In this document: positions 31,094 through 57,698 of the stretch, piece by piece
Position numbering within the stretch: position 1 is the first letter of the stretch
Layout: each line of letters starts with the position of its first letter
IMG/VR virus record: IMGVR_UViG_3300033073_000489
Span: 1 to 64,000 of that record
Length of the DNA: 64,000 bases
Origin: a virus
Taxonomy: Duplodnaviria > Caudoviricetes
Reading direction: 5' to 3' (one strand)
Program-made: the position numbers and the translations under genes
The notes under the pieces: generated by a model
The model's input: the letters and a program-made list of their open reading frames with translations, nothing else
The model's database searches: none
What the model was told of the DNA's origin: nothing

Positions 31094-31527
31094 AGTTCCA
31101 AGCCATCCTTTCTTGCTTGTTCTTCGATACGAGCTTGACGCTCCAATTCATGTTGATCGCATAGTGTGCGGACCCATCCGCCTCCTCTGCGCTTGCCAAT
31201 ACCGCCACATTCTTCACAAGCAATACCTGCCCAGGACTCGGCCATGCTCACTAGTCCGTGAACATAGTCATCCCCGCCTTGATAGTAAAAACGAAGTCCG
31301 CCGAACTTTTCTTTGATCTGTTCTACAACAACTTGTGGACAAACTTCTTCGTTCTTGTTCACATGTTCAATATGTTGCTGGATGCTGGCGCACAGTCTTT
31401 CAAGGATTGGATACCAACCCTTGCCCACAGCAAATCCACCGTATGCCCCAGGAAACATTTTAGGATAGGATTTCTCCATCCGTTGTGCAAACTTTTCATA
31501 TTCTATAAATTCTTGATCTTCGTTCAT
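31090..31527 (-). CDS. Conserved phage hypothetical protein with C-terminal Zn motif
   Basis: QIKEKFGGLRFY, CEECG..RTLC. Confidence 0.8.
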   Translation of the reverse strand: MNEDQEFIEYEKFAQRMEKSYPKMFPGAYGGFAVGKGWYPILERLCASIQQHIEHVNKNEEVCPQVVVEQIKEKFGGLRFYYQGGDDYVHGLVSMAESWAGIACEECGGIGKRRGGGWVRTLCDQHELERQARIEEQARKDGLEL

Positions 31528-32231
31528 TGAAATGCCTTTACATAATTTAATCTAGTTACAGGAACATCTTGATGCTTCCAATGCGTAGAATGGTCTTTTA
31601 CTTTGCCTTTTATAATTACGCAGGCCCCCAATTTTAGGTCAACTTTACTCATCCATGAAACCATCATATTGTTGATTATAGCATCAATATTAAACGCATC
31701 AAAGTTCTTTGAACGTTTTGAACTAATAACATCGCAGTCCAAATCTAAAACTTCAGCACCAACAGGAGCCAAGTAGCCAATGTCTACAGTCTTAATACGC
31801 TTTTCAAATTGAGTCTTTGCATAGTCACGCTTGTATGTGCTAGGCAAACAGGCAATAAACCCAAACTTGTTTAGAGGAACATCTTCTGCATTTAACAGTG
31901 AGTTCACTTCTGTTTGAAACTCGTTGTCACCCTGAATAGCAGAAAACATCAACCTCTTATAAAACTTTTGGATTTCAGTTGCTAACTCTCTATCATCCAA
32001 GTTAGTTGAAATTAGCTGTGGCATTGTTTTTGGATCTGCGTAGGTTGTTTTGTCCTCGCCTAAGGCCACGAGCATTAAAGTTTTATTAGCGTGTTTGTAT
32101 GCTACGGTTACTCCGTCGCTAGCTGTAACGGCTTCAACGCTTTTGATATAATCTTTATTTGATCGTTGGGCGGCGCAAGCCAATTCGAGCACCGTTTGCA
32201 ATGGATAACGATTTACGGCTTCTTTTGCCAT
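31524..32231 (-). CDS. Hypothetical protein, possible C-terminal OB fold
   Basis: 235-aa ORF; IKGKVKDH..VTRLNYVK. Confidence 0.7.
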   Translation of the reverse strand: MAKEAVNRYPLQTVLELACAAQRSNKDYIKSVEAVTASDGVTVAYKHANKTLMLVALGEDKTTYADPKTMPQLISTNLDDRELATEIQKFYKRLMFSAIQGDNEFQTEVNSLLNAEDVPLNKFGFIACLPSTYKRDYAKTQFEKRIKTVDIGYLAPVGAEVLDLDCDVISSKRSKNFDAFNIDAIINNMMVSWMSKVDLKLGACVIIKGKVKDHSTHWKHQDVPVTRLNYVKAFQ

Positions 32232-32264
32232 TTTAAGTCCAAGTGGTTAATTTATACTTGTATT

Positions 32265-32930
32265 TTACATGAAAATAGAATCTTCGTCAACCTTCATTAA
32301 TCGAACGTATACTTTTTTGGCTAATTCACGTAGGACTGCACTATTAACATTTTCAAAATGGGATACGTATTCTAATAAATTTGGACTAGCGTAATTGCCG
32401 CTGACCTTTAATCTGCTAAGGCTAGTAAATTTGGACATATATCTCAACGCCCTGCCTTTGCCCAAACTTCTGCAGAGTTCGATCGCAATGCTTAATGCAT
32501 ACGCATCAATCTCGTCAGGGTCTCCCAGATATCGATAAATGCTACCGCTACTGTCCCAATAAGTTTTATAGTGGCGTTTTCTACTTTGCCTTTGGTGTTT
32601 AAATTCGTGGACTACTGCATCAAAAATTTGTATTAGCAAGTTACCAACATGAAACTGATCCCATTCTAAATCTTTAGGAAAGTTGTGATGGATAATAACT
32701 TCTATTGCAGTATCTTTATTTTTATCGTCTTCAGGGTCATAATATGCGTTAACATAAAATTCTTCCTGATTCATTCTATTAGATCTTGCTGATCTAAGTT
32801 TTAAATCAATCCCCTGCGTTCTAAACTCTTTGCGAGTTTTAGTTAACAGGTTTTGGAAACTAGTTGTAGGTTTGCAACTGTCTTTAACTGTCTTGCAGAT
32901 CTGCGCAACTAGTTCCAATACCGAGTTCAT
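32265..32930 (-). CDS. HExxH (zincin-like) hypothetical protein, paralogue B
   Basis: VVHEFKHQRQ...YLGDPDEIDAY. Confidence 0.65.
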   Translation of the reverse strand: MNSVLELVAQICKTVKDSCKPTTSFQNLLTKTRKEFRTQGIDLKLRSARSNRMNQEEFYVNAYYDPEDDKNKDTAIEVIIHHNFPKDLEWDQFHVGNLLIQIFDAVVHEFKHQRQSRKRHYKTYWDSSGSIYRYLGDPDEIDAYALSIAIELCRSLGKGRALRYMSKFTSLSRLKVSGNYASPNLLEYVSHFENVNSAVLRELAKKVYVRLMKVDEDSIFM

Positions 32931-32931
32931 A

Positions 32932-33150
32932 TTATAACCTATAAGTTACTCTGCCCTTTGTTAAGTCGTATGGGCTGACTTCTACTTTAACGCTATCCCC
33001 TAGGATAACTTTAATCTTATGTTGTTTCAACTTACCGCCCATGTAGCATAGTAGCACATGGCTTTGTCCGTCAACTTTTACCCTAAACATATTACCCGGA
33101 AGGACTTCTTCAACCTTACCGGTTAGTTCAATTAAATCTTGCTTGCTCAT
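32932..33150 (-). CDS. infA: Translation initiation factor IF-1
   Basis: MSKQDLIELTGKVEEVLPGNMFRV..ILGDSVKVEVSPYDLTKGRVTYR. Confidence 0.95.
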   Translation of the reverse strand: MSKQDLIELTGKVEEVLPGNMFRVKVDGQSHVLLCYMGGKLKQHKIKVILGDSVKVEVSPYDLTKGRVTYRL

Positions 33151-33317
33151 GGTTTAGTAATAATTAGTGCGCCGTTTTCAACTGTTATATTCAAAACATC
33201 TCCCTCTTTCCATCCCTGAGCTTCGCATATCTCAGGCGGTATTTTTAGCATGACATTATCGGGGTCGCCGTCAATATCTTCAAACAGTTCCTCAACTGTG
33301 TAGGTTAATTTAGTCAT
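33147..33317 (-). CDS. AbrB/MazE-like small protein (56 aa, not in track)
   Basis: MTKLTYTVEE..LKIPPEICEAQGWKEGDVLNITVENGALII. Confidence 0.7.
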   Translation of the reverse strand: MTKLTYTVEELFEDIDGDPDNVMLKIPPEICEAQGWKEGDVLNITVENGALIITKP

Positions 33318-33328
33318 CGTGTATTTAC

Positions 33329-33718
33329 TTAAACAAAATCGTCATCGTAAGGAACTGGAAACCATCCTAGCTTGTCAAGATCGTTAAGTATTTCTTCTTT
33401 GACTTCGCCCTCGGATGCATAACCTTTTTCGTCCCACCATTCGTTTTCTTTATCGTCATATTCTACATTTCGAATACCAGAGCAGTAATAGTCCATGTAG
33501 TCTTCGCCTGCATTGCGAAGATCTGCAACAATACCGCCGGCACCTCTCCAACTAGCAGACCAATAATTTTCTGCTAGAATAGGCCAAGTGTCTCGTTTAC
33601 ACCATTGCATATTACACCATGCCGCATACAAATTTTGGGCATAGCGCCTATCTTCCGCACGAATCTTAGCCATTATTTCAGGGCAGTTGCGAATGTCTTC
33701 AACTAGGTCGTATTTCAT
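33329..33718 (-). CDS. Hypothetical protein
   Basis: YAQNLYAAWCN..SWRGAGGIVADLR..YMDYYCSG. Confidence 0.75.
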   Translation of the reverse strand: MKYDLVEDIRNCPEIMAKIRAEDRRYAQNLYAAWCNMQWCKRDTWPILAENYWSASWRGAGGIVADLRNAGEDYMDYYCSGIRNVEYDDKENEWWDEKGYASEGEVKEEILNDLDKLGWFPVPYDDDFV

Positions 33719-34032
33719 TAAGGATGCCAGTTTCCGTTAATACAATGGAGTAACTCGTGACCAAGTGTATGTTGATTGGTAGTTTTGCCAACGATGATAG
33801 TGCATTCAGTATCAGTCCAAAAACTACAACCTTGAACTGCATAACCAAATCCGTTATTTCCTACACGTCTACTTTCTCGCTCGCAGGCTTGCGTAGGATT
33901 CTTTTCAAATCTAAAACTTACAGTCATAGTCTTGTTAGGACTTGTAATTCGAACAGGTGTAGTAGGATTATCGTTATATGCAAAAGCGCACATCGATATA
34001 CTTGCCAAAACTGCTGAAATCATTGCCTTCAT
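33718..34032 (-). CDS. Secreted HExxH-containing protein
   Basis: Signal peptide; LGHELLHC. Confidence 0.65.
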   Translation of the reverse strand: MKAMISAVLASISMCAFAYNDNPTTPVRITSPNKTMTVSFRFEKNPTQACERESRRVGNNGFGYAVQGCSFWTDTECTIIVGKTTNQHTLGHELLHCINGNWHP

Positions 34033-34058
34033 TGTATGCCTTTCAAAGTTGCCTAAAA

Positions 34059-34157
34059 TGGTGCAGGCGGTAGGATTCGAACCTACAAAGGCGCTCTAAG
34101 AGCTAGCCCCGTTCCCTCCCCGAAGGGAGGAGGTCTACCAATTCCACTCACGTCTGC
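34059..34157 (-). ncRNA. tRNA-Leu-like RNA lacking a 7-nt anticodon loop (cUUCGg tetraloop)
   Basis: GCAGACG/CGCCTGC acceptor, A73, CCA, GGAATTGGTAGAC D-loop, GTAGG-TTCGAAT-CCTAC T-arm, long variable arm; anticodon arm CCTCCC-TTCG-GGGAGG. Confidence 0.8.
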
Positions 34158-34163
34158 ATTTGT

Positions 34164-34192
34164 ATTATATAGTTATTTTGAGTAAAAGTCAA
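34164..34192 (-). promoter_or_regulatory. sigma70-type promoter for the tRNA-like RNA
   Basis: TTGACT-N17-TATAAT, with the -10 ending 6 nt before G1. Confidence 0.8.
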
Positions 34193-34218: not shown

Positions 34219-34226
34219 TATAAATA
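34219..34226 (+). promoter_or_regulatory. T4 late-type promoter
   Basis: TATAAATA, 22 nt upstream of ATG 34249. Confidence 0.65.
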
Positions 34227-34248
34227 CCCATATTATGAGGAATTAACG

Positions 34249-35190
34249 ATGATTAAATTTATTTTGGCTAGTTTTTTATTTTGCACGACAGCATTGGCAT
34301 TTGAACCAATTGGAAAGCCAATTACCATTATCACTGGGTTTGCGCCCGGTGCAACCGATCAAGCATTAAAGCCATATACCGATGCTTTAGCAAATAGTGG
34401 ATACACGTTTATAATTGAGCGCAGACCCGGTGCCGGTGGAATGATTGCATTAAATCATTTTGCAAATAATTCACCAGCTGATGGGTTTACACTATTTGCT
34501 ACAGCATCGTCGATGTTTACAGTTGCTCCGTTGTTTACACCCGAAACAGTTGCGCATAACGGTGTTATACCTATAACAACATTAAGCGCCGGGCCGATAG
34601 TTTTAGTTGCTAGTCGAGATTCATCGATCAAAACGTTTGATGACTTTAAGAAAACAGTCCAACAAAATACTACGCCTCCTATCGCAGTCCCTTCATTATT
34701 CTTTCAAGCCGGTGCAGAATATATTGCAACTAAGATTAATAAGAATGCAACAATTACAACGGCAATGTATAAATCTGGGCCAGATGCGTTACGAGATATC
34801 GTAGGAGGACATGCACAACTAGGAGTGATACAGTTATCGGTTGTTGCACCTATGCTAACATCTGATAAAATCTCAATCCTTGCAATTAGCGGAGAAACTA
34901 GATTAGATACCTTAACTAATGTTCCAACATTCTCTGAAAAGATTAAAGGTATTAATCCACGAATTGAAGCTAGCTGGGGTATTGCATTGCCGTTGGGAAC
35001 CCCTCCGGAAATTCAAAAATTTTATAATGATTTTTTCTTACAGGTTGCACAACAAGAATCAACTAAGAAAGCCTTGGCAGTTAATTACATGATTATTCCA
35101 AAGAACTACTTAGGAAGGCAAGCATTTGACAAACGTATTGCAGAAGAAACCGAAATGTGGTCGTCGGTGCTGCACAGGATTCCAAAATGA
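34249..35190 (+). CDS. Bug/TctC family tripartite tricarboxylate transporter substrate-binding protein
   Basis: Signal peptide; GFAPG.TD, ERRPGAGG, ADGFTL, YKSG..ALRDIVGGH, VPTFSE. Confidence 0.88.
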   Translation: MIKFILASFLFCTTALAFEPIGKPITIITGFAPGATDQALKPYTDALANSGYTFIIERRPGAGGMIALNHFANNSPADGFTLFATASSMFTVAPLFTPETVAHNGVIPITTLSAGPIVLVASRDSSIKTFDDFKKTVQQNTTPPIAVPSLFFQAGAEYIATKINKNATITTAMYKSGPDALRDIVGGHAQLGVIQLSVVAPMLTSDKISILAISGETRLDTLTNVPTFSEKIKGINPRIEASWGIALPLGTPPEIQKFYNDFFLQVAQQESTKKALAVNYMIIPKNYLGRQAFDKRIAEETEMWSSVLHRIPK

Positions 35191-35372
35191 GTTTTGAGCA
35201 AACTAATCCCTCAGACAATTCTGACCAACAGCCGTATGTTGGCCGCGGTCAAAGTGACTGGGCAGGCAGCGGAGTTGTAATCTATCGAAAAGAAGATAAA
35301 GGTCGGAAACAAGACCCTCAAACAAATATGCCCGGTGGTTTACCTAATATGGAGACCGGAGATGACGACTAA
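35187..35372 (+). CDS. Small Gly/Asp/Pro/Gln-rich peptide (61 aa)
   Basis: ATGA-coupled to the Bug gene; MSFEQTNPSDNSDQQPYVGRGQSDWAGSG..METGDDD. Confidence 0.4.
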   Translation: MSFEQTNPSDNSDQQPYVGRGQSDWAGSGVVIYRKEDKGRKQDPQTNMPGGLPNMETGDDD

Positions 35373-36072
35373 GCAGTATCTTAACGTAGTAGTCGATCAG
35401 GAAACAAAAGGTATTCTAACACGATGTTCAACACCAAGTGTTGCAAATGCTGTTGCTAGAGGAATCCCAAACAGCTCAATGATGATAATTGAGTTTCCGT
35501 TTATGAAGCACGAGATTGTTAATTATCAAACTGACATAAACTTAAATTATAAACTCTTAAGGAAGTTGTATCCCCAACATTCTGATGTGATTCCTCTAGA
35601 CAGCGAAAGCAATGTGTTTGAAGTAGTTGACGATACACCGTCAGGCCGGCCCTTTGATATAATACCGATGGACGCTACACCTGCTTGGATTGAACAACGA
35701 AAAATTGCAAATTTTAAAGCATTTGCATTTAATGACTTAGAGAACAGATGTGACAGATATCTAGCACGTATAGAAACATTTAGTCACGATGAACTATTTT
35801 ATCAATACCTTGCAAAAGAACTTGAGCAAGTAAACGTTGATGATAATTACTATCCGGTAGGAATCACTGAATGGGCTGAAATTAACGACATGAGTAATTT
35901 TGCAGCATACCAAGAACTTAAGATGAACTACCAGTCTAATGGAATTATTCTTATGCGCATTCATGCAATATGGAATAGATACCAGGACCTGATTAATGGT
36001 ATAAGCACATATGATGAGTTATGGAAATTAGTATACCAGGTAGAAACAGAGTTAAGGTTTGGTAAGAGATGA
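35362..36072 (+). CDS. Hypothetical protein, translationally coupled upstream of a PP-loop ATPase
   Basis: GGAG RBS plus ATG at 35362; ATGA overlap with 36069. Confidence 0.75.
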   Translation: MTTKQYLNVVVDQETKGILTRCSTPSVANAVARGIPNSSMMIIEFPFMKHEIVNYQTDINLNYKLLRKLYPQHSDVIPLDSESNVFEVVDDTPSGRPFDIIPMDATPAWIEQRKIANFKAFAFNDLENRCDRYLARIETFSHDELFYQYLAKELEQVNVDDNYYPVGITEWAEINDMSNFAAYQELKMNYQSNGIILMRIHAIWNRYQDLINGISTYDELWKLVYQVETELRFGKR

Positions 36073-37154
36073 AATCAGTTACTGCAAGTTTAGCATTAGA
36101 GCTTAAGGATCTAAGAGCATTAGACATTATTAAAAATTATCCGGATATTGATATCTACAGACAAACACATGTATTGATAGGACAGTCTTGGATTCTTGAT
36201 AGGACGCAAACTGTGCAATTACCATTTCGCAGCACAGTATTAGTTGAACATCAATTACCTGACTTTACGCTTATACCTGAATACGACTTATTAGATATTT
36301 GCCTCAGACGTGCGGCTGAATTGATTAGCACTAATCGTCAGTTATTCTTCTTCTGGTCTGGCGGCATTGATTCTACGCTAGGATTAGTTAGTTTTTTAAA
36401 ATTAGGTATCCCATTAGATCAAGTAACTGTAGTATGTAATAATGATAGCATACGAGAAAATTTAAAATTTTATCAGGATCACATTCGTGGAAAATTTAAG
36501 TTAATATCGTCTGAATTAATGATGCAACAAATGAAGACTACGCAAATTGACGGAATCATTGTAAGTTCAGAACATGGCGACTTAATGTATGGTCAAGATT
36601 TTGGCCATGCAATGTTTGAGATGTTTGGGACTAACTATTTGCGTGAAAAGCCAACTCGTGAGAATATTACTAAATTTTTTAGGCAAGGTAAGATGTCTGA
36701 CCAAGCTGCTAACTGTTGGTATGATTTATATATGGATAGTGCAAAAATGTCGCCTAGACCGATAGACACAACTTATGACTTTAGCTGGTGGGCCGGGTTT
36801 AATTGGAGGTGGCAATGGGCCAAAGAAAAAATTAAAATTAGGACTGCAATTGACCTAGACATTAGAACTTTCTTTTCAACGCACGAGTTTCAAAAATGGT
36901 CTGTAAATCATACACAGTCAGACATGAAAAATAAACGAGATATTAAAATAGAGTTTAAGAAAATTATATTAGACTATACACACGACCAGACATACTTTGA
37001 CACTAAGATCAAACATCCGTCTGTTACAATGTATTATGGCGGAAATTCTTTTGTAGCAATTGATGAGCAAGGAAAGAAAATATCTGCAAACGACTTTACA
37101 ATATTAGACTATTACCAGAGTGATAATTTTATAGCAAACTGGCTCAAGTCATAG
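36069..37154 (+). CDS. Asparagine-synthetase-C-like PP-loop ATPase (no glutaminase domain)
   Basis: FFFWSGGIDST, SSEHGDLMYG, RTFFS..FQKW. Confidence 0.75.
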   Translation: MKSVTASLALELKDLRALDIIKNYPDIDIYRQTHVLIGQSWILDRTQTVQLPFRSTVLVEHQLPDFTLIPEYDLLDICLRRAAELISTNRQLFFFWSGGIDSTLGLVSFLKLGIPLDQVTVVCNNDSIRENLKFYQDHIRGKFKLISSELMMQQMKTTQIDGIIVSSEHGDLMYGQDFGHAMFEMFGTNYLREKPTRENITKFFRQGKMSDQAANCWYDLYMDSAKMSPRPIDTTYDFSWWAGFNWRWQWAKEKIKIRTAIDLDIRTFFSTHEFQKWSVNHTQSDMKNKRDIKIEFKKIILDYTHDQTYFDTKIKHPSVTMYYGGNSFVAIDEQGKKISANDFTILDYYQSDNFIANWLKS

Positions 37155-37155
37155 A

Positions 37156-37180
37156 AAAAGGACCCGAAGGTCCTTTTCTA
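37156..37180. terminator. Bidirectional terminator, cUUCGg loop on the minus strand
   Basis: AAAAGGACC-CGAA-GGTCCTTTT between convergent genes. Confidence 0.85.
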
Positions 37181-37193
37181 TTAGTGTTACTAA

Positions 37194-38219
37194 TTAATCT
37201 GCTTTCTTGATTTCTTTAACCAATTGCTCACTACCTGGAACATAATGATATGCTCTAAAGTATTGTTGAGGAGCAGCTTCTCTTAGAGTAGCTGTTTCTT
37301 CTGCAGAAATTTCTTTAATTGTTACACCGTTAGCTACAGCATTGTCTTCGTATGCTTGCGCATCATCTAACGACCACTGACGTTCTAACTTAGCAACAAC
37401 CTTTGCTGCTTTCTTAAACACAGCTTGTTGTTCTGCTGTTAACGAATCAAAGAATGGTCCACCAACTAAGATAGTTGTTAAGAACATGCTGTGGTTTGTT
37501 TTGAGAACATTTTTACCTGCAAAGCGTAGATAAGTAGTTTCAATAGCACCACCTTTAGCTACTTGCTCTGCTGTTTGATCAATCTTCTGATTCATTCTGC
37601 TAGTTGCCTTAGCAGTAAATCTTTCAAAGAATGTGCGAGTCATTGGTGTTGTAGTAATGTCTACAGTCTTTAATGCTTCAACACTTTCAATTGGGTGATT
37701 AGATCCAACAATGCGATATCCACCTGAGTAAGTAAATGCTAGGCCTTTGACGTTAGTCTTGTCTCCTAGTTCCTTACATAGTGAATCACCGATTTCACCG
37801 TCTAATACTTTGCTAACGTGATCGTGACTGTTAAACAAGAAAGGCAAATCTAAAGTAGCAAACTTATCGTGCAAGTGTCCGCCGATAACTGTTACTTGTG
37901 TTTGGCTTAAATGAATCTTACCGTCGCGCATGCCGTTAAACATTGCAGCCCATTTCTTAGTTACGTCTTTCCATTCAATAGGAGTAAAGAAGTCACTGTT
38001 AGGCAACGACTCGATCCCGTCGACTGTTCCTGGGCGCATTTGAAGTTCTGGAATATCTCCATACTTTTCAATATACTGTTTCATGGTTAAAATTTCAATC
38101 TCAAACTGCCCTGGTAATTCTTTTTCTAGTTCAGCAGCAAATGCTTCTGCTGTTCTAACAAACAAATAGGCAGGTTGGTGAGCAATTAACCAACGTAGTT
38201 TCATAGGTCCTTGAGACAT
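37194..38219 (-). CDS. DctP-like TRAP substrate-binding protein, no signal peptide (paralogue 2)
   Basis: TLDLPFLFNSHDHVSKVLDGEIG, AFTYSGGYR, NHSMFLT. Confidence 0.8.
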   Translation of the reverse strand: MSQGPMKLRWLIAHQPAYLFVRTAEAFAAELEKELPGQFEIEILTMKQYIEKYGDIPELQMRPGTVDGIESLPNSDFFTPIEWKDVTKKWAAMFNGMRDGKIHLSQTQVTVIGGHLHDKFATLDLPFLFNSHDHVSKVLDGEIGDSLCKELGDKTNVKGLAFTYSGGYRIVGSNHPIESVEALKTVDITTTPMTRTFFERFTAKATSRMNQKIDQTAEQVAKGGAIETTYLRFAGKNVLKTNHSMFLTTILVGGPFFDSLTAEQQAVFKKAAKVVAKLERQWSLDDAQAYEDNAVANGVTIKEISAEETATLREAAPQQYFRAYHYVPGSEQLVKEIKKAD

Positions 38220-38231
38220 ATCTGCTCCTAA

Positions 38232-39176
38232 TTAATGTAGTTGAATCTTGCTAACAAGTCCTGGAGTAAAGTAGTCGGCATACATGTCGTATACTTGGCT
38301 AGTTACTTCCTTAAACTTATTAACTTCATCGCCTGACATAGTTACAACTTCAACACCTTCTGATTCGCATTGTGCTAAAATATTTGGAATATCTGCAACT
38401 GACTCACGACGCTCTGCGCGAGCTGCATTGAATGCGGCTGTTGCAAAAATTTCTTGAGTTGCTTGATCAAATTGAGACATGAAGTCTTTGTTTACAATAA
38501 TAGAAGTTAAGAACAAGCTGTGTGCTGTGTCGTTAACAACTTTGAAACTCTTGTGCTGATCTAGAGGGAACACACGAACGTATGTTGACTCACCAGCTTC
38601 GATGATACCTTGATCAGCAGCAGCGTTCATCTGCTCTAATTCAATACCTTCAAATGGGACAGCACCTAATAGCTTAAATGTATCAACTGCTACAGGGCTA
38701 CGGCTTGTGCGAACTTTCTTGCCTGCCCAAGCAGCAACAGTATCACCACGGAAGTTAGCAGGAACAACACGATAGCCACCGCTATATGTAAAGCTCATTG
38801 CGTGAATGTTACTATTCTTAGAAACACCAGCTAATAGCTCTGCACCAATTTCACCTTCTAAAACGCGATCAGCGTGTGCGTGATCTTGGAATAGGAATGG
38901 TAGATCTAAAGCATGTAGATCTTTATTGTAGTCAGCTAGCCATGTTGTGTAGATGTGGCTCATCTCGATTGTGCCGTCATTGATTAGGCCCATCAAGTCA
39001 TTCTTAGTAATTTTCTTACCATCATTATATTTTGTAGCATAGTCGCTTAGTGACAATACTTCAATATCAAACTTACCACCAGTTTTTTCGTTCACTTCTT
39101 GTGCGAAACGATTTGCTACTTTTAGGAAAAGTCCAATTGGTTCATGGGCGATTACCCAACGAATTTTTGTGCTCAT
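38232..39176 (-). CDS. DctP-like TRAP substrate-binding protein, no signal peptide (paralogue 1)
   Basis: ALDLPFLFQDHAHADRVLEGEIG, FTYSGGYR, GKKVRT, AHSLFLT; ATG 39176. Confidence 0.82.
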   Translation of the reverse strand: MSTKIRWVIAHEPIGLFLKVANRFAQEVNEKTGGKFDIEVLSLSDYATKYNDGKKITKNDLMGLINDGTIEMSHIYTTWLADYNKDLHALDLPFLFQDHAHADRVLEGEIGAELLAGVSKNSNIHAMSFTYSGGYRVVPANFRGDTVAAWAGKKVRTSRSPVAVDTFKLLGAVPFEGIELEQMNAAADQGIIEAGESTYVRVFPLDQHKSFKVVNDTAHSLFLTSIIVNKDFMSQFDQATQEIFATAAFNAARAERRESVADIPNILAQCESEGVEVVTMSGDEVNKFKEVTSQVYDMYADYFTPGLVSKIQLH

Positions 39177-39226
39177 ATGATTCTCCATTTAACGTTAAAT
39201 TGGGCAGGTCATGACTCTGCTCAAAG

Positions 39227-39234
39227 TATTTATA
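39227..39234 (-). promoter_or_regulatory. T4 late-type promoter for the DctP pair
   Basis: TATAAATA on the minus strand. Confidence 0.6.
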
Positions 39235-39487
39235 CTTTTGGAACTTCTAAGCTGTTATCTGCTAGTTTTTTGCCCCAATCGGCTATGTTCCATGCACGTT
39301 CGTGGAAGAAATAAAGTATGCTGTTAACTACTAGGGCAAAGCTAACGACACCTAGACCAACCATCCAGCTACCGCTTGCTAACCATCCGCCGATGAAATT
39401 AGTAATAGTTACTAAGATACGCCAGGTAATGACCTTGGCAACTGAGCGAGGGATGCGCTCTTGGAATTTAGTTTTAATATTGAACAT
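39230..39487 (-). CDS. DUF2061 family membrane protein
   Basis: RSVAKVITWR..ILYFFHERAWN. Confidence 0.85.
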   Translation of the reverse strand: MFNIKTKFQERIPRSVAKVITWRILVTITNFIGGWLASGSWMVGLGVVSFALVVNSILYFFHERAWNIADWGKKLADNSLEVPKV

Positions 39488-39561
39488 TATGTCTCCTTTG
39501 TAATTAAAACTGATTCCTAACCAAAATGCTTTCGTAAAAGCACTTCAGATAAGAATTTCTC

Positions 39562-40446
39562 TTACTTGCTGCTGTTAATTTTATCTTTATATTTGACTTG
39601 TAGAGATTTAACTTGCCCTACAGATCTAGTATAAAACTCTTCAGCAGTGACATTGTCAAACTGCGGCGGGCGCATTGCAGATAGATTATAGATCTCTTGC
39701 TCGCCTACTTTAGCAGTGGCATTGGTTAAAATCATTGCAATAGCTTTACGTCTTGCTTCTGGCATAGATTTATGTGCAACAGTAATATTAAAAACATATG
39801 GTGCATCAATTCCTAGTTGTTTTAATGTTTTTACATTGGGTGCTTGTTTTAACCTAGTAGGGCAACTGGCAGCAACCATTTGAAGTTTAGCGTTTTTCGT
39901 CTTTAATGCTTCATAGCTTTCAAACTTGTCAATTACAAATTCAACCCCGTTGTTTCCTGCCATATTGATCAAAGCATCGTTGTTACTCTTAAACACAATG
40001 TATCTAACATCAAACTTATACTTGTCACCTAGTGCTAGGGCAGTTAAGTGTGCAGCATTGCCATAGCCAACTCCCCCGACTACAAATTCTTTTTGCCCTT
40101 TTAAAGGTTTGTTAGTTACCACTGCCCAACAGGCATCACCGAAAGCGTGTAACGGAATATAGTCTGCTTCGTTTAGCTTACCCGACTCTACATTTTCTAC
40201 GTAAGCGGGGGCAATAATTGCAAGGCTGTTTTCATCTAAACTCTTCACAGCAATAATTTGATTACCACCTGGTTTAAATTCTACAATAAATTTGTAGATA
40301 GATTGACTAGCGTTAGCTTCGTCCACAACCCTGTGTAGTGCAGGAGTAGCACTATGTCCAGGACTGTAGGGGCTATAAATTTTAATTGTTTCTGCAAATA
40401 GAGAGTTGCTAAAAAGGATCATTAATCCAAGGATAATTTTTTTCAT
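39562..40446 (-). CDS. Bug/TctC-like substrate-binding protein (second, divergent copy)
   Basis: Signal peptide; YSPG, EFKPGGNQ, GGVGYGN..HL, IVFKS..ALINMAG, VKTLKQLG. Confidence 0.75.
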   Translation of the reverse strand: MKKIILGLMILFSNSLFAETIKIYSPYSPGHSATPALHRVVDEANASQSIYKFIVEFKPGGNQIIAVKSLDENSLAIIAPAYVENVESGKLNEADYIPLHAFGDACWAVVTNKPLKGQKEFVVGGVGYGNAAHLTALALGDKYKFDVRYIVFKSNNDALINMAGNNGVEFVIDKFESYEALKTKNAKLQMVAASCPTRLKQAPNVKTLKQLGIDAPYVFNITVAHKSMPEARRKAIAMILTNATAKVGEQEIYNLSAMRPPQFDNVTAEEFYTRSVGQVKSLQVKYKDKINSSK

Positions 40447-41693
40447 GTATCTGTCCAGTTGATTGAGTAATTAATAATGTGATGTCTAAAGTATTCTCTT
40501 ACACTAGGATCTTCCATTGAAAGCATTTCATAATCTTTGCTCAGTGCTAGGTTAGACTGCCACGGAAGAATTGCCTTACCTTTAATTAGTAAATTGCCTA
40601 ACGATTCTAATTTAGTTTTAAAATGAAAATACCAATCATTTTTATCATAGTTATGTATGTATTCACGAGCTACGTATTTGTAAGTCCCCACGGTATTTCT
40701 AATCTTACAACCGTTGTTATTATTGGCCATACTCCATAGTTGGTAGTCGGTTCCGTTAAACCAGTTAATTGTAGAATCTATACATTCACGTTTAGGCATT
40801 TCCATATTGAAATATAATGCACCGCGAACAGAACAGTTTAGATACTTAACATTAAAAATTAACCACCAAAAGAAATCATGTAATGTATGGACTGGAACTC
40901 TTGCAGTATTAATGTTATGGCGATACTTTTCGTATAACAATCTACCAAACTCTAATCCTTCGGGCGTATGATCATATGCCAAGTGTCTTACAATAATGTC
41001 TTTGTAAACACTAAAATGCACTTCGCCGGTTGCTATTTTATATTTTAATGGTCGCAGTCTTTCTCTAGTTTCTGGACTCAAATGTCTAATATACGCATCG
41101 TAGTTGTGATATAGTTCCAACCCAATACTAGTCCCCATAATGCAATCACCTTCGTCAGAAGTAATTGGCATGTATCCTGCATTAATGAGATCGTCATACC
41201 AATATTTGTGAGAGTCAAGTATTGTAAACTTACCAAAGATATATTTTTCCCACACATAGGGGTTTTCTATAATAACGTGAACGCTTGCACATATTACTAC
41301 AGACTTTAGTTCTTCTGTGGTTAAGTTCTTTAATAGTGCAATTAATACTAGTGTGCTATCCATGCCCCCAGAGTAAAGTAGTGCAAACTTTTTCCCTGCA
41401 TTAATTAAGGCTTTAATTTCCAGGGCACGGGCGTCGGTAACTTCTTCGAATGTTTTTTCAAACCTAGGGTTATACTCGGGCATAGCAAAGTCGGGTATAA
41501 TTTCTTGCTTCCATGGCAAGCTCCACTCGCTATCATTTCTACTTACAAAACGATTTAACGGAAAACGCCTAGCAATGTCTAGGTAAAATTTGCCACCGGG
41601 TCCTGCCTCTTCTCTAATACTGTTCCAGAAGTCCCACGGTGCAAAGTGATCGCCGCGAATATTATGGAAGTATATAGTATCATCTAAATTCAT
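40443..41693 (-). CDS. Asparagine-synthetase-C-like PP-loop ATPase
   Basis: LLYSGGMDST, TSDEGDCIMG; close paralogue of 43540..44799. Confidence 0.78.
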   Translation of the reverse strand: MNLDDTIYFHNIRGDHFAPWDFWNSIREEAGPGGKFYLDIARRFPLNRFVSRNDSEWSLPWKQEIIPDFAMPEYNPRFEKTFEEVTDARALEIKALINAGKKFALLYSGGMDSTLVLIALLKNLTTEELKSVVICASVHVIIENPYVWEKYIFGKFTILDSHKYWYDDLINAGYMPITSDEGDCIMGTSIGLELYHNYDAYIRHLSPETRERLRPLKYKIATGEVHFSVYKDIIVRHLAYDHTPEGLEFGRLLYEKYRHNINTARVPVHTLHDFFWWLIFNVKYLNCSVRGALYFNMEMPKRECIDSTINWFNGTDYQLWSMANNNNGCKIRNTVGTYKYVAREYIHNYDKNDWYFHFKTKLESLGNLLIKGKAILPWQSNLALSKDYEMLSMEDPSVREYFRHHIINYSINWTDT

Positions 41694-45524: not shown

Positions 45525-45605
45525 TAATTAAAGTCCTATATTATAGGAAATATTTAGTGTGCGATGAATTTCAAGATAAATATTGTGACTAAAGGAGTCA
45601 AATAT

Positions 45606-45899: not shown

Positions 45900-45913
45900 T
45901 TTGAAAGGCGAGC

Positions 45914-52857: not shown

Positions 52858-52886
52858 AAAAAATAGGACCCGGAGGTCCTATTATT
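52858..52886. terminator. Terminator at the right boundary of the enzyme cluster
   Basis: ATAGGACC-CGGA-GGTCCTAT with a flanking A-tract. Confidence 0.75.
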
Positions 52887-53346
52887 CTGCATACCAAATT
52901 TCTGTAAAACCTTCGTCTTCGGTTGGCATTTCAAACCCAGCAATCATACTAGCAATAACGTGCTCTGGAATTTCTTTCCCAGGACGACTCCACAGTCTAC
53001 GAATCAACTCCTTATGCTCTGGTGTCTTGAACACGACGGCAATATGCTCGTAGTTTGGCAGAGTGTTAAACTTACGCTTACGGCTAGCAATAGTTGTTGA
53101 AGTTTGATCCCAGATTACATCTAAGTTGTTTGCTTGACAGACCAACGCTTGGTTTGCCATTAACCGAACAGCGATTGGCATGTATTCAGTAAACACTTCA
53201 GAGTAAGTCTTACCTTGCTCCTTAGCGTATGCTTCTACAAAGTTGTCAGTAGACACTACAGGAATATCCTTAGCCCAGTCTTGGTTGTTAATCCAAGTAG
53301 ACTTTCCAGATCCTGGAACACCGACTAATTGATAACACTTTGGCAT
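52882..53346 (-). CDS. AAA_33/polynucleotide-kinase-like P-loop protein
   Basis: GVPGSGKST, DQTST..RK, L..RL..RP, IPEHVI..M. Confidence 0.85.
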   Translation of the reverse strand: MPKCYQLVGVPGSGKSTWINNQDWAKDIPVVSTDNFVEAYAKEQGKTYSEVFTEYMPIAVRLMANQALVCQANNLDVIWDQTSTTIASRKRKFNTLPNYEHIAVVFKTPEHKELIRRLWSRPGKEIPEHVIASMIAGFEMPTEDEGFTEIWYAE

Positions 53347-53519
53347 TTTTGTAACCTTTCTATTTCATCAGCTGCCTCTTCCAGCAGGTCTGCTATACGA
53401 TCTCTTGCACCTTCTTCAACACTCTTACGGCCAGGTATCTGTCGTCTAATCTCCGCCCGTTTGCGCAAACGGAAGACTAGACTTTGTTCAGATACTGGCA
53501 AGTGACTTTCATCTTTCAT
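53325..53519 (-). CDS. Small hypothetical protein
   Basis: LVFRLRKRAEIRRQIP.RKSV..DRIADLLEEAADEIERL; ATG 53519. Confidence 0.7.
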   Translation of the reverse strand: MKDESHLPVSEQSLVFRLRKRAEIRRQIPGRKSVEEGARDRIADLLEEAADEIERLQKCQSVIN

Positions 53520-54415
53520 GCTAATTGTTCCCTTACCCATGCTAGACGAGCTTGCTCGTCCATTGCTGTGTATTCTACTATGTTAGCACGGATTGCGTCA
53601 ACCAGTGGATAGTATTCTTCATCTAGATTGTGCTTAATGTCCTTGTTCAAGTCTACTAACTTATCTGTGCGTGGATTGCGAGCAACCCACTTTGAAGTTA
53701 GGTAGTATGGTGACTTGATCTTAGCACTCACACCTTCGTCAGTATAGAATACATAACCTTCATGCTTACATTCCTTAGCCAACTGTTCCAAACGTGCCAT
53801 GTTAGTTGTAACACTTTCTGCCCAGAAACAGTTTAGGCTACGAGCAAAGTCCATTAGGATGTATGGGTCATGTAAGATCTTAGAGCCGAACACGTTTTCG
53901 CGCCAGCCTAACAAATACATACCCGACTTTTCTGGAATGATATGTGGATCACTTGGATGCACACATTCAAACATAAAAGTCACTCCCTTGCACTCTGCGT
54001 TGCCTAGTGCCATTTGCCAGTCAGCCCAGCACATATGAGTTAGCATCATTTCTTTTGCCATTGCTACATATGGGCTGTCTGTGCTACCAGTAGTAGACAC
54101 TAGGATGTCTCCGTTGTGCCAAGTCATAGCAACCATGAACCCGTTTATCTTACGGAACGCTGTAACCTTAGTATCGCCGGATAGCTTTGGAGCTTCCTTT
54201 TCAATACCGTAGTTATAGATCTTTGTGAATGGATATGTAACTAGGTTAAAATCCTTGTCCACAATAGACCCACGACATTCTGCAATGTAGTCGTTCCACA
54301 AGTTGTCGTAGAATACCTTCTTCTTATACTTTAATACAAAGAGCCCGTCACTACATTCCTTCATGTTAACCAATCCAGAAGTAGCAACGTAGTTCTTTAA
54401 CTCATCCTTAAACAT
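53516..54415 (-). CDS. RNA ligase, T4 Rnl1-like
   Basis: Motif I RKING, FE, EGYV, KIKSPYY; PFTKIYNYG. Confidence 0.8.
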   Translation of the reverse strand: MFKDELKNYVATSGLVNMKECSDGLFVLKYKKKVFYDNLWNDYIAECRGSIVDKDFNLVTYPFTKIYNYGIEKEAPKLSGDTKVTAFRKINGFMVAMTWHNGDILVSTTGSTDSPYVAMAKEMMLTHMCWADWQMALGNAECKGVTFMFECVHPSDPHIIPEKSGMYLLGWRENVFGSKILHDPYILMDFARSLNCFWAESVTTNMARLEQLAKECKHEGYVFYTDEGVSAKIKSPYYLTSKWVARNPRTDKLVDLNKDIKHNLDEEYYPLVDAIRANIVEYTAMDEQARLAWVREQLA

Positions 54416-54956
54416 GATGACCCTTAATTTCTTTGTCCTTGATCATACGTATAGCACGATCCAAGCCAATTACAATTTCTCCAGTTGAGTCCATACCCAC
54501 ATCTAATGCGCGATACTTTTCCAACCCGCTTACACCACCGTGCAAGTGTCCATGAAAATGCAAAGCTCCTCTGTGCATTTGATCCCACTCAGCGATTGGA
54601 TAGTGGAACATAACAATCTTGTGACCGTCATACGTCATATCCAAATACTTGTGAACTTCCTTAAATGCATTACGGAAAGTTACATCCATCAATGTCTTGC
54701 GATCGTGGTTACCTTCAATCAAAATCTTTGTGCCGTTCAAACGATTAATCATTCTACCAGCATCGCTACCTGACATGAACGCTACATCACCTAAGATGTA
54801 AACTGTGTCTTCGGGTTGAACCTTGTGGTTCCATTCCTCAACCATAGCATTATTCATGTAGGTAACATCGTCATTAAAACGTGCTCGCGTCTGTGGGCAG
54901 AACTTCATAATGTTCTTATGCCCAAAGTGCAAGTCACTTGTAATCCATGTTTTCAT
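54408..54956 (-). CDS. Calcineurin-like phosphoesterase
   Basis: SDLHFGH, LGD, GNHD, FHYP, HGHLH, DVGMD. Confidence 0.9.
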   Translation of the reverse strand: MKTWITSDLHFGHKNIMKFCPQTRARFNDDVTYMNNAMVEEWNHKVQPEDTVYILGDVAFMSGSDAGRMINRLNGTKILIEGNHDRKTLMDVTFRNAFKEVHKYLDMTYDGHKIVMFHYPIAEWDQMHRGALHFHGHLHGGVSGLEKYRALDVGMDSTGEIVIGLDRAIRMIKDKEIKGHHV

Positions 54957-55154
54957 TTATTCACCTACAAATTCTTTTACCCATTCAAAATGAGTTTCGC
55001 TGGCCTTAACCCACTTAAACTGCTCTCGACGTCTGTTGATCTTGTCGAAGTCAAAGCAAATAAAGATCCAGCCCTTTTCTTCTGAGAACTGCACAGATTC
55101 AGCAACCCGAACAATCTGCACAATCCTGTCCTTAAACTTTGCTACGATCATCAT
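54957..55154 (-). CDS. Small hypothetical protein
   Basis: 65-aa ORF in operon. Confidence 0.6.
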   Translation of the reverse strand: MMIVAKFKDRIVQIVRVAESVQFSEEKGWIFICFDFDKINRRREQFKWVKASETHFEWVKEFVGE

Positions 55155-55163
55155 ACTGGCTCC

Positions 55164-55445
55164 TTACATGGACCAGTAAGTCTCCGAAGCTGGATTGCAA
55201 CACCAAGGAGTGTCGCGATCAATTTGGACATCTTTACCGGTCATCAAATTCTTAACTGTTTTCATTGTTGGGAAATATTCAAAACGATAGCCCAACTTTG
55301 CAGGATACAAACTAAACAATTCGGCGCATTCACGCTTCATGCTCGCTTCATCGCGGGCTTGCCAAACTGTAGTAGAAACAAGACGCTCACCTCGCTTAGT
55401 GCGCTTGTCCAATTTGTAGATATACAATGTCCAATCTTGTTTCAT
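55164..55445 (-). CDS. Hypothetical protein
   Basis: KNLMTGKDVQI..DTPWCCNPASETYWSM C-terminus; own RBS and promoter. Confidence 0.75.
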   Translation of the reverse strand: MKQDWTLYIYKLDKRTKRGERLVSTTVWQARDEASMKRECAELFSLYPAKLGYRFEYFPTMKTVKNLMTGKDVQIDRDTPWCCNPASETYWSM

Positions 55446-55476
55446 TTCGCTCTCCTATGTGTTTCAGTATATGTAT

Positions 55477-55505
55477 ATTATATGCTCAAACGGCTAAGGC
55501 GTCAA
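55477..55505 (-). promoter_or_regulatory. sigma70-type promoter
   Basis: TTGACG-N17-TATAAT. Confidence 0.8.
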
Positions 55506-55534
55506 CCAGAGAGTTGTTGTATTAATACAACACT

Positions 55535-55726
55535 TTACCAATCTTCGACACCGCTAATCTCAATGTTAAACGAGCCCTGTAGCCCGCCAGCATCAAGTGG
55601 AAATGTCATCGTAGTGACGCTTCCAATTCCACTGCTAGAATCTTGGTCTAGTTCAAAAATTTCTACTTCTGGAAACTTATCCAAAACTTCTTGAATTTTG
55701 TCGATGTCTTTTCTAGTTAAGTGCAT
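55535..55726 (-). CDS. Small hypothetical protein
   Basis: 63-aa ORF. Confidence 0.65.
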   Translation of the reverse strand: MHLTRKDIDKIQEVLDKFPEVEIFELDQDSSSGIGSVTTMTFPLDAGGLQGSFNIEISGVEDW

Positions 55727-56193
55727 CAGTCTATACTCCTAAATGTGCGCCAATCATCAAGATTGGGCTTTTCGTTTTCGTCGTATGTCCAGCCCAATGC
55801 CTTCATCATACGATGCTTGACTAACAAGTTAGGGCTACGGAAACGACCAGTATCCTGGAAGCCCATCATGACACCAACTTCACAAACTGCACCCGAACGG
55901 CAGATACCTGCAAAGCAATGAACAACAACGTTCATGTGGTTGTCCTTTGCGTGTTGCAACAGGCGAACTAGCTCGTCGGCTTGTTCTTGACTGCAACGCA
56001 TTTCTTCGTCGTCTACGTGATCATTCTTTTCTACATCCAAGAATTCAAAGTTATGAATTTCCTTGAACTTGTGCGCAGGAGTAGGACGCCAGCTTGCAGG
56101 ATCAGTAATACTGATCAGCATACTGTTCTCCCCTGCTTCGTGATGGAACCGCTTTGGAATGTCATCAGCGGCGACATTTTCAATCCATGGCAT
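55726..56193 (-). CDS. Cys-dependent (PTP/DSP-like) phosphatase
   Basis: VVHCFAGICRSGA = HCxxGxxRS. Confidence 0.85.
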   Translation of the reverse strand: MPWIENVAADDIPKRFHHEAGENSMLISITDPASWRPTPAHKFKEIHNFEFLDVEKNDHVDDEEMRCSQEQADELVRLLQHAKDNHMNVVVHCFAGICRSGAVCEVGVMMGFQDTGRFRSPNLLVKHRMMKALGWTYDENEKPNLDDWRTFRSID

Positions 56194-56214
56194 TTACTGC
56201 TCCTTTAAAGTTAA

Positions 56215-56243
56215 ATTATACTAGATGTTTTGGACTACGTCAA
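56215..56243 (-). promoter_or_regulatory. sigma70-type promoter
   Basis: TTGACG-N17-TATAAT. Confidence 0.8.
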
Positions 56244-56245
56244 CC

Positions 56246-56273
56246 TAAAAAAATAGCACCCGAAGGTGCTATT
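56246..56273 (-). terminator. cUUCGg terminator after the DUF2828 gene
   Basis: AATAGCACC-TTCG-GGTGCTATT plus T-tract. Confidence 0.85.
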
Positions 56274-56288
56274 AAAAAGTAATACTTT

Positions 56289-57698
56289 TTAGCTAAGGTC
56301 GTAGCGTGGGACCATTACAGTCTTAAGCATGATACCTTCTGGAGTGAATTGGTCCAGATCAGCGGACAGCAAAGCTGTCATGATGCTTGGGCTAAATCCG
56401 CTAACTAGAGCGGCTCCAGACTTGTCTGACTTAACAGGAACGTTACCGCTACTGTTCAAGTTCCAGAACACAACTTGTGGTGCGGTATAACCCGCATCAG
56501 CATACTTGCGTTCGATCATTTCCATTGCGCTGTCGTCGAAACGAGCGCATTGGTTGAACTGCATGTCTGACAAGATTAGCAACATCTTTGGCATGTCGCT
56601 AGCTGGGACGTTACCCTTAACTGCAACGCTTAGGATCTTGTCCATAGCGGCATGCAAGTTAGTGCTCATTTCCCAGTTGCTGGTCGACATTTGTTCGACC
56701 TTTTGAACAATGTTACCCTTTAGAGTAACAAGTTGTGGCTTGCTAGAGAAAGTCAAGAATGTGTCCTTGAACACGCCCTTGTTCTTGTCTGCAAGATACA
56801 AACCTAGTCCAACCGCTACATCCAAACAACGAACAGTCGAACCTGGAACAGATGTTGTCATCGAACCAGATACGTCAACTAGAGGCAGGATACTTGCGTC
56901 ACCTACGTAGTTAGGCAGAGCGTCCCATTGTGCGATCACATGGTCTGTTTCTGTCTTGTTCAGCTTGGTGTAGCTGTGTGCAATGCCCTTCAACACATCA
57001 TGTGGGTAGATTGCTGAGGCGTTAACCTTAACAGTCTTATCACCACTTGTCAACTTGGCCACATACTCTGCGAACGCAGGTGTGTGACGGTTGAATGCCT
57101 TCTTGTAGTTGCGAGCAGCCACAGAAGGAACGTGTGAGAAGTTGATGTTATCCCAGTCGTTGGCACACATTTGTGTTTCAACAACCTTGGTAAGTGCCAC
57201 AAGGCTCTTACGATATTGCTTTGGAGTCATTCCAAAGAACGCACGGATTTCCTGTGCGATTTGACCCTTACGAGGAGTCCACTTTGCAGCCAAGCCATTA
57301 CGAGCACGAAGTGCATCGCCTAGCATAGTGTAAGCGGCGCTCTTAAGAGCAGGAGTAGAGAAGACAAAGATGTCGTCCCAACGTCCCACTTCAGGCGCCT
57401 TCTTTAGCAAAGCCAAAGCGGCGTCTGGGTCACGCTTTTCCAAGTGAACAAGAATGTCACGGAAAAGTTGACGTTCACCCGCACCACCACGGACATCACG
57501 TGCCCATTGTGCGATGCGTAGAGCAACGTCTTGGTTTTCAACATAAGCGGCTGTAAAGTCGCCTACGATGTTCTTACCACGGCTTGCGCCAATGTTGTAA
57601 AACAGGTCAACTGTAGCCTTGGCTGTTGACTTACGTGCCTTCATACCGTTAGCGGTGCGGGCTTCTTGATTTGCTACTGCGTTTACAAATGCGTTCAT
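56289..57698 (-). CDS. DUF2828/TROVE-like protein with C-terminal vWA domain (Ro60-related)
   Basis: WARDVRGGAGER, AAKWTPR, VDVSGSM (MIDAS), LILSDMQF, VFWNL. Confidence 0.85.
   Translation of the reverse strand: MNAFVNAVANQEARTANGMKARKSTAKATVDLFYNIGASRGKNIVGDFTAAYVENQDVALRIAQWARDVRGGAGERQLFRDILVHLEKRDPDAALALLKKAPEVGRWDDIFVFSTPALKSAAYTMLGDALRARNGLAAKWTPRKGQIAQEIRAFFGMTPKQYRKSLVALTKVVETQMCANDWDNINFSHVPSVAARNYKKAFNRHTPAFAEYVAKLTSGDKTVKVNASAIYPHDVLKGIAHSYTKLNKTETDHVIAQWDALPNYVGDASILPLVDVSGSMTTSVPGSTVRCLDVAVGLGLYLADKNKGVFKDTFLTFSSKPQLVTLKGNIVQKVEQMSTSNWEMSTNLHAAMDKILSVAVKGNVPASDMPKMLLILSDMQFNQCARFDDSAMEMIERKYADAGYTAPQVVFWNLNSSGNVPVKSDKSGAALVSGFSPSIMTALLSADLDQFTPEGIMLKTVMVPRYDLS

Follow-up and report, generated by a model that had tools for sequence, protein, structure and literature searches.

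The 64,000-nucleotide (nt) stretch of DNA analyzed here, which we call the window, is the first 64 kb of the 82,780-bp viral record IMGVR_UViG_3300033073_000489 in IMG/VR (Duplodnaviria; Caudoviricetes), and it carries on its minus strand a 99-nt element with the parts of a tRNA and a capped helix where the anticodon loop should be. We found that this element derives from a class-II tRNA-Leu, does not decode, and has a structure conserved under selection, and comparison across 88 distinct homologues shows that its shape exceeds chance. The element has its own strong promoter and heads an early operon. With slightly less than even confidence, we propose that the RNA could act in trans, as a non-decoding tRNA-Leu mimic or decoy within a tRNA-protection program of the phage. 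The completeness of the record is estimated at 23%, and it contains 42 matches to the tRNA model, which together point to a jumbo phage as its origin.

Structure of the element in the window

The initial annotation had described a 99-nt RNA with A73-CCA, a Leu-type D-loop, a perfect T-arm, a long variable hairpin, and a UUCG-capped arm, and we recovered these parts as described. The acceptor stem (GCAGACG/CGCCUGC) was also present as claimed, with one A5.C68 mismatch in the window copy that had gone unmentioned. The D arm was accepted only in part: the D-loop (GGAAUUGGUAGAC) is of the tRNA-Leu type, whereas the D stem is not a canonical helix, with three of its four pairs marked as nonstandard by the Rfam tRNA model (RF00005). 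The arm that replaces the anticodon arm, (U)CCUCCC-UUCG-GGGAGG(G), consists of a U.G pair and six Watson-Crick pairs closed by the tetraloop, with a folding energy of -12.2 kcal/mol. The ACCUCC of this arm resembles an anti-Shine-Dalgarno sequence, and the opposite strand is not kept as GGAGG in all clades.

Standard tools dealt poorly with the window copy. The Rfam tRNA model scored it at 26.0 bits, below the gathering score of 29, and ARAGORN, from which an undetermined type had been expected, instead forced a tRNA-Arg(tcg) call. When ARAGORN was applied to 15 relatives, it made no call in 11 of them and returned Arg(acg) or Pro(ggg) for the others. Since the relatives give nothing or a different identity, the Arg(tcg) call is an artifact. 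No transfer-messenger RNA (tmRNA) was reported by the program for the window copy or for the 15 relatives. Single-sequence folding of the window copy gave a z score of -1.2, which is not significant, and a mimic could not be told apart from a damaged gene on the basis of this copy alone.

Homologues and covariation

Homologues were collected in two ways. Pattern scans of viral and metagenome contigs gave 72 loci with 45 distinct full-length sequences, and a second sample, drawn without any RNA criterion, took loci solely by their neighboring protein u221 and added 43 further sequences. The conservation in these 43 was the same as in the first sample. IMG/VR holds 328 viral relatives of the u221 marker, and the element was found upstream on the same strand in 74 of the 80 loci fetched, so that the family is a large one. 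The remaining six loci gave no match at an E value of ≤1e-5, and in five of them the upstream flank was 1.2 kb or shorter. The combined set of 88 distinct homologues ranges from 95 to 121 nt in length, with one copy of the element per locus, on contigs of up to 364 kb that, judged by their names, come mostly from freshwater metagenomes.

Covariation was tested on the 45-sequence alignment, in which 97.2% of the cells at paired positions hold standard pairs. Eleven of the 21 pairs change on both sides: five of the seven in the acceptor stem, three in the arm, one in the variable hairpin (GC, CG, and GU at columns 71/90), and two in the T stem. The acceptor stem was paired in 98.1% of the cells, and the T stem was paired in 100%, with both of its outer pairs covarying. 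The observed covariation score was reached by none of 500 shuffles, and shifting the partner columns abolished the signal. A UUCG cap is present in 28 of the 88 homologues.

The arm varies from 14 to 39 nt across the family, and a 7-nt terminal loop occurs in none of the 88 members, in agreement with the earlier description of the RNA as non-decoding. Fifty arms are capped by tetraloops, among them, in addition to UUCG, CUUG (7 members), UUAG (4 members), UACG (3 members), and single GNRA loops; the loops of the remaining arms are predicted to have 3, 5, 6, 10, or 15 nt. The shortest arm, UCCAG-CUUG-CUGGG, measures 14 nt and is shorter than a real anticodon arm. An arm as short as this leaves no room for an intron or a hidden anticodon, and we therefore ruled out a hidden or spliced anticodon. 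Additionally, 21 long arms (L082, L096, L076, and 18 others) contain an AGUA...GAA internal loop, absent from the window copy, that resembles a bulged-G (sarcin-ricin/loop-E) module and may provide some clades with an extra site for protein binding.

Outside the arm, the positions expected of a tRNA are held almost without exception. A73, U8, U48, the AA at positions 14 and 15 of the D-loop, and the UGAG(U/C)GNAA of the D region were present in 88 of 88 members, the D-loop GG was present in 87, and the T-loop UUCGAAU was present in 75. The 3' end reads ACCA in 86 members and ACCG in 2, and position 3:70 is A-U in 70, G-C in 13, and G.U in 5. A covariance model of the family (R1) scored the window copy at 108.7 bits, and the next match in the genome was a tRNA-Leu(tag) at 39.8 bits. 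In general, members scored between 80 and 111 bits and true tRNAs reached at most 48, with tRNA-Leu the best-scoring true type, followed by tRNA-Tyr.

A decaying pseudogene, or an assembly or deletion artifact derived from tRNA-Arg(UCG) or tRNA-Leu, would agree with the tRNA-Arg(tcg) reading that ARAGORN can force, with a CUUCGG that is one base short of a 7-nt loop, and with the A.C mismatch of the window copy. The comparative data refute this explanation, and we give it next to no probability. The 88 distinct homologues come from independent assemblies and carry compensatory changes, a one-base deletion cannot account for arm lengths between 14 and 39 nt, and conservation of the promoter and A73-CCA extends throughout the family (CCA in 86 of 88). 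The initial annotation had already held that the element is not a pseudogene; a 7-nt loop in the relatives had been set beforehand as the observation that would speak against this, and all 88 lack one.

A pattern of the 5' half of the element had no match in 185,579 genomes of prokaryote species, and no prophage copy was seen; this argues that the element was not borrowed from a host. A search of 50,697 GenBank phage records returned nothing similar, only 30-nt T-arm matches to tRNA-Tyr.

Promoter, transcript ends, and trailer

The initial annotation had assigned the element a sigma-70 promoter of its own and a position about 24 kb from the tRNA array, and both statements stood: the promoter is conserved in 91 distinct loci, and the start of the array lies 24.2 kb from the element. 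The window promoter, TTGACT-17-TATAAT (34192-34164), matches the sigma-70 consensus at 11 of 12 positions and is the best within 4 kb. Among the 91 distinct promoter-plus-element sequences surveyed, 33 had a perfect 12/12 consensus and 90 had at least 10/12; the spacer measured 17 nt in 89, and the -10 box was TATAAT or TATACT in 85. In all 91, nucleotide 1 followed the -10 box after exactly 6 nt, and it was always a purine (G in 82 and A in 6 of the 88 members). From this constant spacing and the purine, we infer that transcription begins at nucleotide 1, so that the RNA would be leaderless and 5' triphosphorylated.

No terminator follows the element in the window. At 83 of the 91 loci, at least six of the first 8 nt past the CCA are A or U. 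The first ATG, irrespective of the status of its reading frame, lies 20 to 34 nt downstream in 79 of 91. In the first 72 loci, an open reading frame (ORF) of at least 40 codons starts 19 to 43 nt past the CCA. We considered sequestration of the ribosome-binding site by the mimic and rejected it, as the duplex energies of trailer and mimic were no better than those with shuffled trailers (mean z = +0.36, with 2% below -2).

Neighboring genes

The features of the element and its surroundings are listed in Table 1.

Table 1. Positions of the element, its promoter, and neighboring features in the window
Feature	Position	Strand	Comment
-35 hexamer TTGACT	34187..34192	minus	TTGACA or TTGACT in 87/91
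-10 hexamer TATAAT	34164..34169	minus	followed by 6 nt (34163-34158) before nucleotide 1
Whole element	34157 to 34059	minus	99-nt anticodon-less class-II tRNA-like RNA
Acceptor stem, 5' strand (nt 1-7)	34151..34157	minus	pairs with 34063-34069; 5/7 pairs change on both sides across the family
D region (nt 8-26), UGAGUGGAAUUGGUAGACC	34132..34150	minus	tRNA-Leu-type D-loop, without canonical D stem
Arm replacing the anticodon arm (nt 27-44)	34114..34131	minus	UUCG loop at 34121-34124
Long variable region (nt 45-71)	34087..34113	minus	27 nt, hairpin, ends in U48
T arm GUAGG-UUCGAAU-CCUAC (nt 72-88)	34070..34086	minus	
Acceptor stem, 3' strand	34063-34069	minus	
Discriminator A73	34062	minus	
Encoded CCA	34059-34061	minus	
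A/U-rich trailer	34033..34058	minus	26 nt, holds ribosome-binding site of next gene
First operon gene	33718..34032	minus	104-amino-acid secreted protein, 4 Cys, C-terminal HExxHCxxGxxH
Rest of conserved operon	31524..33718	minus	kept wherever the fetched flank reaches
u129	33329-33718	minus	
56-amino-acid ORF	~33150-33329	minus	between u129 and IF-1
IF-1	32932-33150	minus	translation initiation factor
u221	32265-32930	minus	HExxH motif
u235	31524-32231	minus	possible C-terminal OB-like fold
Island of metabolic-type genes	34219-52850		18.6 kb
GNAT gene	52242-52850		
tRNA-repair set	52882..57698	minus	annotation and synteny
96-nt tRNA	59336-59431	minus	Rfam 56.8 bits

In 59 of 72 loci, the gene directly after the mimic encodes a homologue of the 104-amino-acid secreted protein. 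The family (alignment A6) comprises very small secreted proteins, of 103 to 122 amino acids, that have four invariant cysteines and, C-terminally, a metzincin-like zinc motif (GHExxHCxxGxxH); no sequence match was found in Pfam, PHROG, NCBIfam, or PDB. In one clade (L030 and L039), the gene after the mimic encodes a Lys/Ala-rich protein of 64 to 65 amino acids that resembles histone-like nucleoid proteins.

No sequence match in Pfam, NCBIfam, or PDB was found for u129, u221, or u235. The u221 protein (221 amino acids; alignment A2) has an invariant D..HE..HQ.Q motif, which makes it a possible metallopeptidase; all of its 328 IMG/VR relatives are uncharacterized, and a protein atlas returned only uncharacterized viral clusters for it. 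A fold search gave weak OB-fold-like rows for the C-terminal part of u235 only (best E value, 0.017) and no match for u129. The 56-amino-acid ORF between u129 and IF-1 is called in a public assembly (L156, positions 782-952) and weakly matches MazE/AbrB-type antitoxins.

The tRNA-repair set upstream is complete for break repair and encodes a Ro60/TROVE-like DUF2828 protein, a DSP-type phosphatase, a PdeM-like phosphoesterase, a T4 Rnl1-like RNA ligase, and an AAA_33 polynucleotide kinase (Pnk), together with a 71-amino-acid ORF. The Ro60-like protein has a DUF2828+DUF7788 architecture and matches PHROG 850 (E value, 2e-141), and similar proteins occur in 706 GenBank phage records. The repair set lies directly upstream of the mimic in about a third of the loci (approximately 25 of 72), and one clade has the mimic flanked by the Ro60-like and Pnk genes; radical-SAM, alpha/beta hydrolase, or GNAT genes intervene in other clades.

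In the window, the 18.6-kb island separates the repair set from the promoter of the mimic. This island is absent at that position in most relatives and is an insertion specific to this genome. The same junction in relatives L012-L023 holds other cargo (radical SAM, alpha/beta hydrolase, GNAT, and TctC/DctP binding proteins), and this difference in cargo marks the junction as an insertion hotspot. In the loci examined, variable islands lie on the upstream side of the promoter, and none separates the mimic from the gene that follows it. The initial annotation had linked the mimic to adjoining GNAT/Fem-like enzymes. As the island is an insertion between the repair set and the promoter and is not conserved beside the mimic, this functional link was not supported, and the record contains no FemAB or L/F-transferase domain. 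No CCA-adding enzyme or PTH2 domain was found in the 82.8-kb record either, which covers about 23% of the genome and is thus weak evidence on all of these absences.

The 96-nt tRNA of the window was missed by ARAGORN. It has the anticodon loop CUUAUAC (UAU, Ile), and its variable region, about 30 nt long, contains a hairpin; such a class-II-like shape is uncommon for tRNA-Ile. In relative L017, a 94-nt tRNA-Ile(tat) was called on the minus strand at 12423-12516, which indicates that this shape is conserved.

Proposed function of the mimic

The features of the tRNA upper half that are read by anticodon-blind proteins, namely the acceptor helix, A73-CCA, the elbow, U8:A14, A15:U48, and the variable arm, are all kept in the mimic. 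With the anticodon loop replaced by a capped helix of free length, the RNA can neither pair with a codon nor be cut at that place. Anticodon nucleases recognize the anticodon loop; because this loop is absent here, the target of a decoy must be anticodon blind. The nuclease-resistant decoy suggested earlier therefore falls as far as anticodon nucleases are concerned and stands only as a decoy for an anticodon-blind factor.

In the mechanism that we propose, host RNA polymerase would start at nucleotide 1 from the near-consensus early promoter, giving a 5' end that would need no RNase P and would probably keep its triphosphate, and ordinary tRNA 3' processing within the A/U-rich trailer would free the A73-CCA end from the operon transcript. 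The RNA, which may or may not be aminoacylated, would then most likely serve in trans as a competing ligand (a decoy or sponge) for a factor that binds tRNA by its upper half and 3' end. Candidate targets would be CCA-end-modifying toxins (AbiEii/MenT or toxSAS type), LeuRS, and RelA, and the decoy would work alongside the approximately 40 phage tRNAs and the Rnl1/Pnk/Ro60-like repair set. A more specific form of the proposal would make the RNA the first natural viral "tRNA decoy," abundant, 5' triphosphorylated, possibly chargeable, invisible to the ribosome, and made early in infection to titrate an anticodon-blind host factor. In this form it would protect the real tRNA pool or blind host sensing of uncharged tRNA; we consider this form possible and, on balance, doubtful.

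Published work on such factors offers parallels. MenT3, a member of the DUF1814/AbiEii family, recognizes its tRNA through the acceptor-T helix, elbow, long variable loop, and CCA, and is hardly affected when the anticodon stem is shortened (PMC11162799). Bacterial LeuRS recognizes tRNA-Leu by anticodon-independent features such as those kept here, and leucylation can proceed without the anticodon arm (Giege and Eriani 2023, PMC9976931). The retention of A73, U8:A14, A15:U48, and G18G19 in the mimic is consistent with an RNA that can be charged with leucine. G3.U70 is an identity determinant of AlaRS, and its presence together with A73 in five members argues against selection for one specific amino acid; these members would fit a role in which the identity of the amino acid is irrelevant.

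Alternative explanations

Some points weigh against a decoy acting in trans. The D region is invariant, and covariation is uninformative there; the pattern scans behind the 45-sequence sample demanded part of this same region; and the only public contig found to encode the downstream protein begins inside the variable arm of the element, probably at an assembly break. Moreover, the missing terminator, the ORF that starts 19 to 43 nt downstream, and the strict leaderless design fit a role in cis equally well. In such a role the tRNA fold would be a paired 5' cap or processing signal of the early operon mRNA, shielding it from 5'-end-dependent decay or setting its processing rather than acting as a free RNA. 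The mimic is always first in its transcription unit, and the constant 6-nt spacing places nucleotide 1 in a helix, as a 5'-terminal stabilizer needs. For a free tRNA so exact a start would presumably be superfluous, given RNase P. The position of the islands, which leave the mimic joined to the next gene, also agrees with a cis-acting module, and there is a precedent in the tufB operon of Escherichia coli, which opens with four tRNAs. However, a plain hairpin would do for this purpose, and the invariance of A73, CCA, U8, U48, and the elbow between D-loop and T-loop is left unexplained; normal tRNA 3' processing would remove the cap; the downstream gene varies by clade (the HExxH protein, Pnk, or the 64-amino-acid basic protein); and the ribosome-binding site shows no conserved pairing with the mimic. 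We therefore regard a cis-acting module as unlikely.

The RNA could instead be the partner of the phage Ro60/TROVE-like protein and the repair enzymes, either as a Y-RNA-like scaffold or as a substrate mimic. The proximity of the repair set, which is the immediate upstream neighbor in about a third of the loci, and the clade with the order Ro60-like, mimic, Pnk speak for such a partnership, as does the precedent of a tRNA-like RNA working with TROVE proteins in cells; TROVE proteins are encoded by some jumbo phages as well (PMC7824862; PMC4201824). The architecture of the mimic is nevertheless the opposite of that of YrlA, with a free acceptor end and a closed "anticodon" arm, and no Rfam Y-RNA matched at an E value of ≤10. 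Linkage to the downstream operon is also tighter than linkage to the Ro60-like gene, and in two cultured phages with a Ro60-like gene, Stenotrophomonas phage DLP_6 and Ralstonia phage RSP15, the covariance model detected no mimic next to that gene. We consider this explanation quite improbable. We are similarly skeptical of a leucine-charged RNA that donates its aminoacyl group to nonribosomal chemistry, through the neighboring GNAT/Fem-like enzymes or the host L/F-transferase, an idea that we judge highly doubtful. The mimic keeps the anticodon-independent Leu identity set, and one clade, of nine loci, has a GNAT gene 1 kb upstream; the window has one within the island. Against this stand the lack of conservation of the enzyme island beside the mimic, the absence of FemAB, L/F-transferase, and Pth2 domains from the record (23% of the genome), the noncanonical D stem, and the five members with G3.U70 and A73, which imply that the amino acid would not be constant.

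Significance of the family

Known mimics of tRNA include tmRNA, Y RNAs, the tRNA-like structures at viral 3' ends, and mascRNA. In full-text literature searches, only some of them aimed at an RNA of this kind, in Rfam, and among GenBank phages, we found no tRNA that is free-standing, driven by a promoter, and CCA ended and that systematically has a capped helix for an anticodon loop: the searches for anticodon-less phage tRNA mimics yielded nothing beyond tmRNA and broad surveys of candidate tRNA-like RNAs of phages, and Rfam has no family for the mimic. The family represents a natural experiment in which the upper half and 3' end of tRNA-Leu were kept and decoding alone was discarded. The identity of its partner would reveal a new principle of antidefense or host takeover acting on tRNA-binding machinery or, alternatively, a new route by which phage mRNA is built or protected. 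Additionally, the arm varies freely; it is the natural equivalent of the engineered "tRNA scaffold" and shows where tags for pulldowns could be inserted.

Comparison with known systems

Among the closest known RNAs is bacterial or phage class-II tRNA-Leu (RF00005), with which the mimic shares the 7-bp acceptor stem, A73-CCA, U8:A14, A15:U48, the T-arm, and a long variable arm. The D-loop of the tRNA-Leu of Ralstonia phage RSP15 is identical to that of the mimic. In contrast to class-II tRNA-Leu, no member of the family has an anticodon loop, the D stem is noncanonical, the variable region is about twice as long, the score falls below the Rfam threshold (26 versus 29 bits), and the promoter is predicted to be leaderless.

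The tRNA-like domain of tmRNA, including that of the tag-less mini-tmRNAs of phages, is a chargeable upper half without an anticodon, in which the D-loop lacks a proper stem and the T-arm and A73-CCA are kept. The mimic resembles it in all of these structural respects: an upper half without an anticodon, an improper D stem, a T-arm, and A73-CCA. It differs in that G3.U70 is missing from 83 of 88 members, that there is no tag reading frame and there are no pseudoknots, and that a class-II variable arm is present.

YrlA likewise mimics a tRNA without decoding, and its gene lies near those for Ro60 and RNA repair. Its acceptor-like stem ends in a loop, and where a tRNA has the anticodon stem, YrlA continues into a Ro-binding helix formed by the ends of the RNA (PMC4201824). 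In the mimic, by contrast, the ends form the acceptor stem with a free ACCA, and the arm is the part that is closed. The placement of the promoter recalls the leaderless tRNA genes of Nanoarchaeum equitans, which start at nucleotide 1 and give a 5'-triphosphate without any need for RNase P (PMC10100707). For the mimic, this likeness is predicted from the spacing; the genes of N. equitans encode decoding tRNAs in an organism without RNase P, whereas the phage host presumably has the enzyme.

Other tRNAs and phage RNAs provide functional analogies. The nonproteinogenic tRNA-Gly of Staphylococcus, which has a normal anticodon loop and avoids the ribosome because it binds EF-Tu weakly, donates glycine to the cell wall. 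It is, like the proposed role of the mimic, a case of a tRNA diverted from the ribosome; the mimic differs in having no anticodon loop and no linked tRNA-dependent transferase. Phages also use RNA decoys against defense systems, such as the pseudo-ToxI of phage PhiTE and the RNA anti-CRISPRs. The concept would be the same for the mimic, that of a phage RNA copying a host RNA ligand in order to titrate a defense protein; however, the known decoys copy antitoxin RNA or CRISPR repeats, whereas the RNA described here copies a tRNA.

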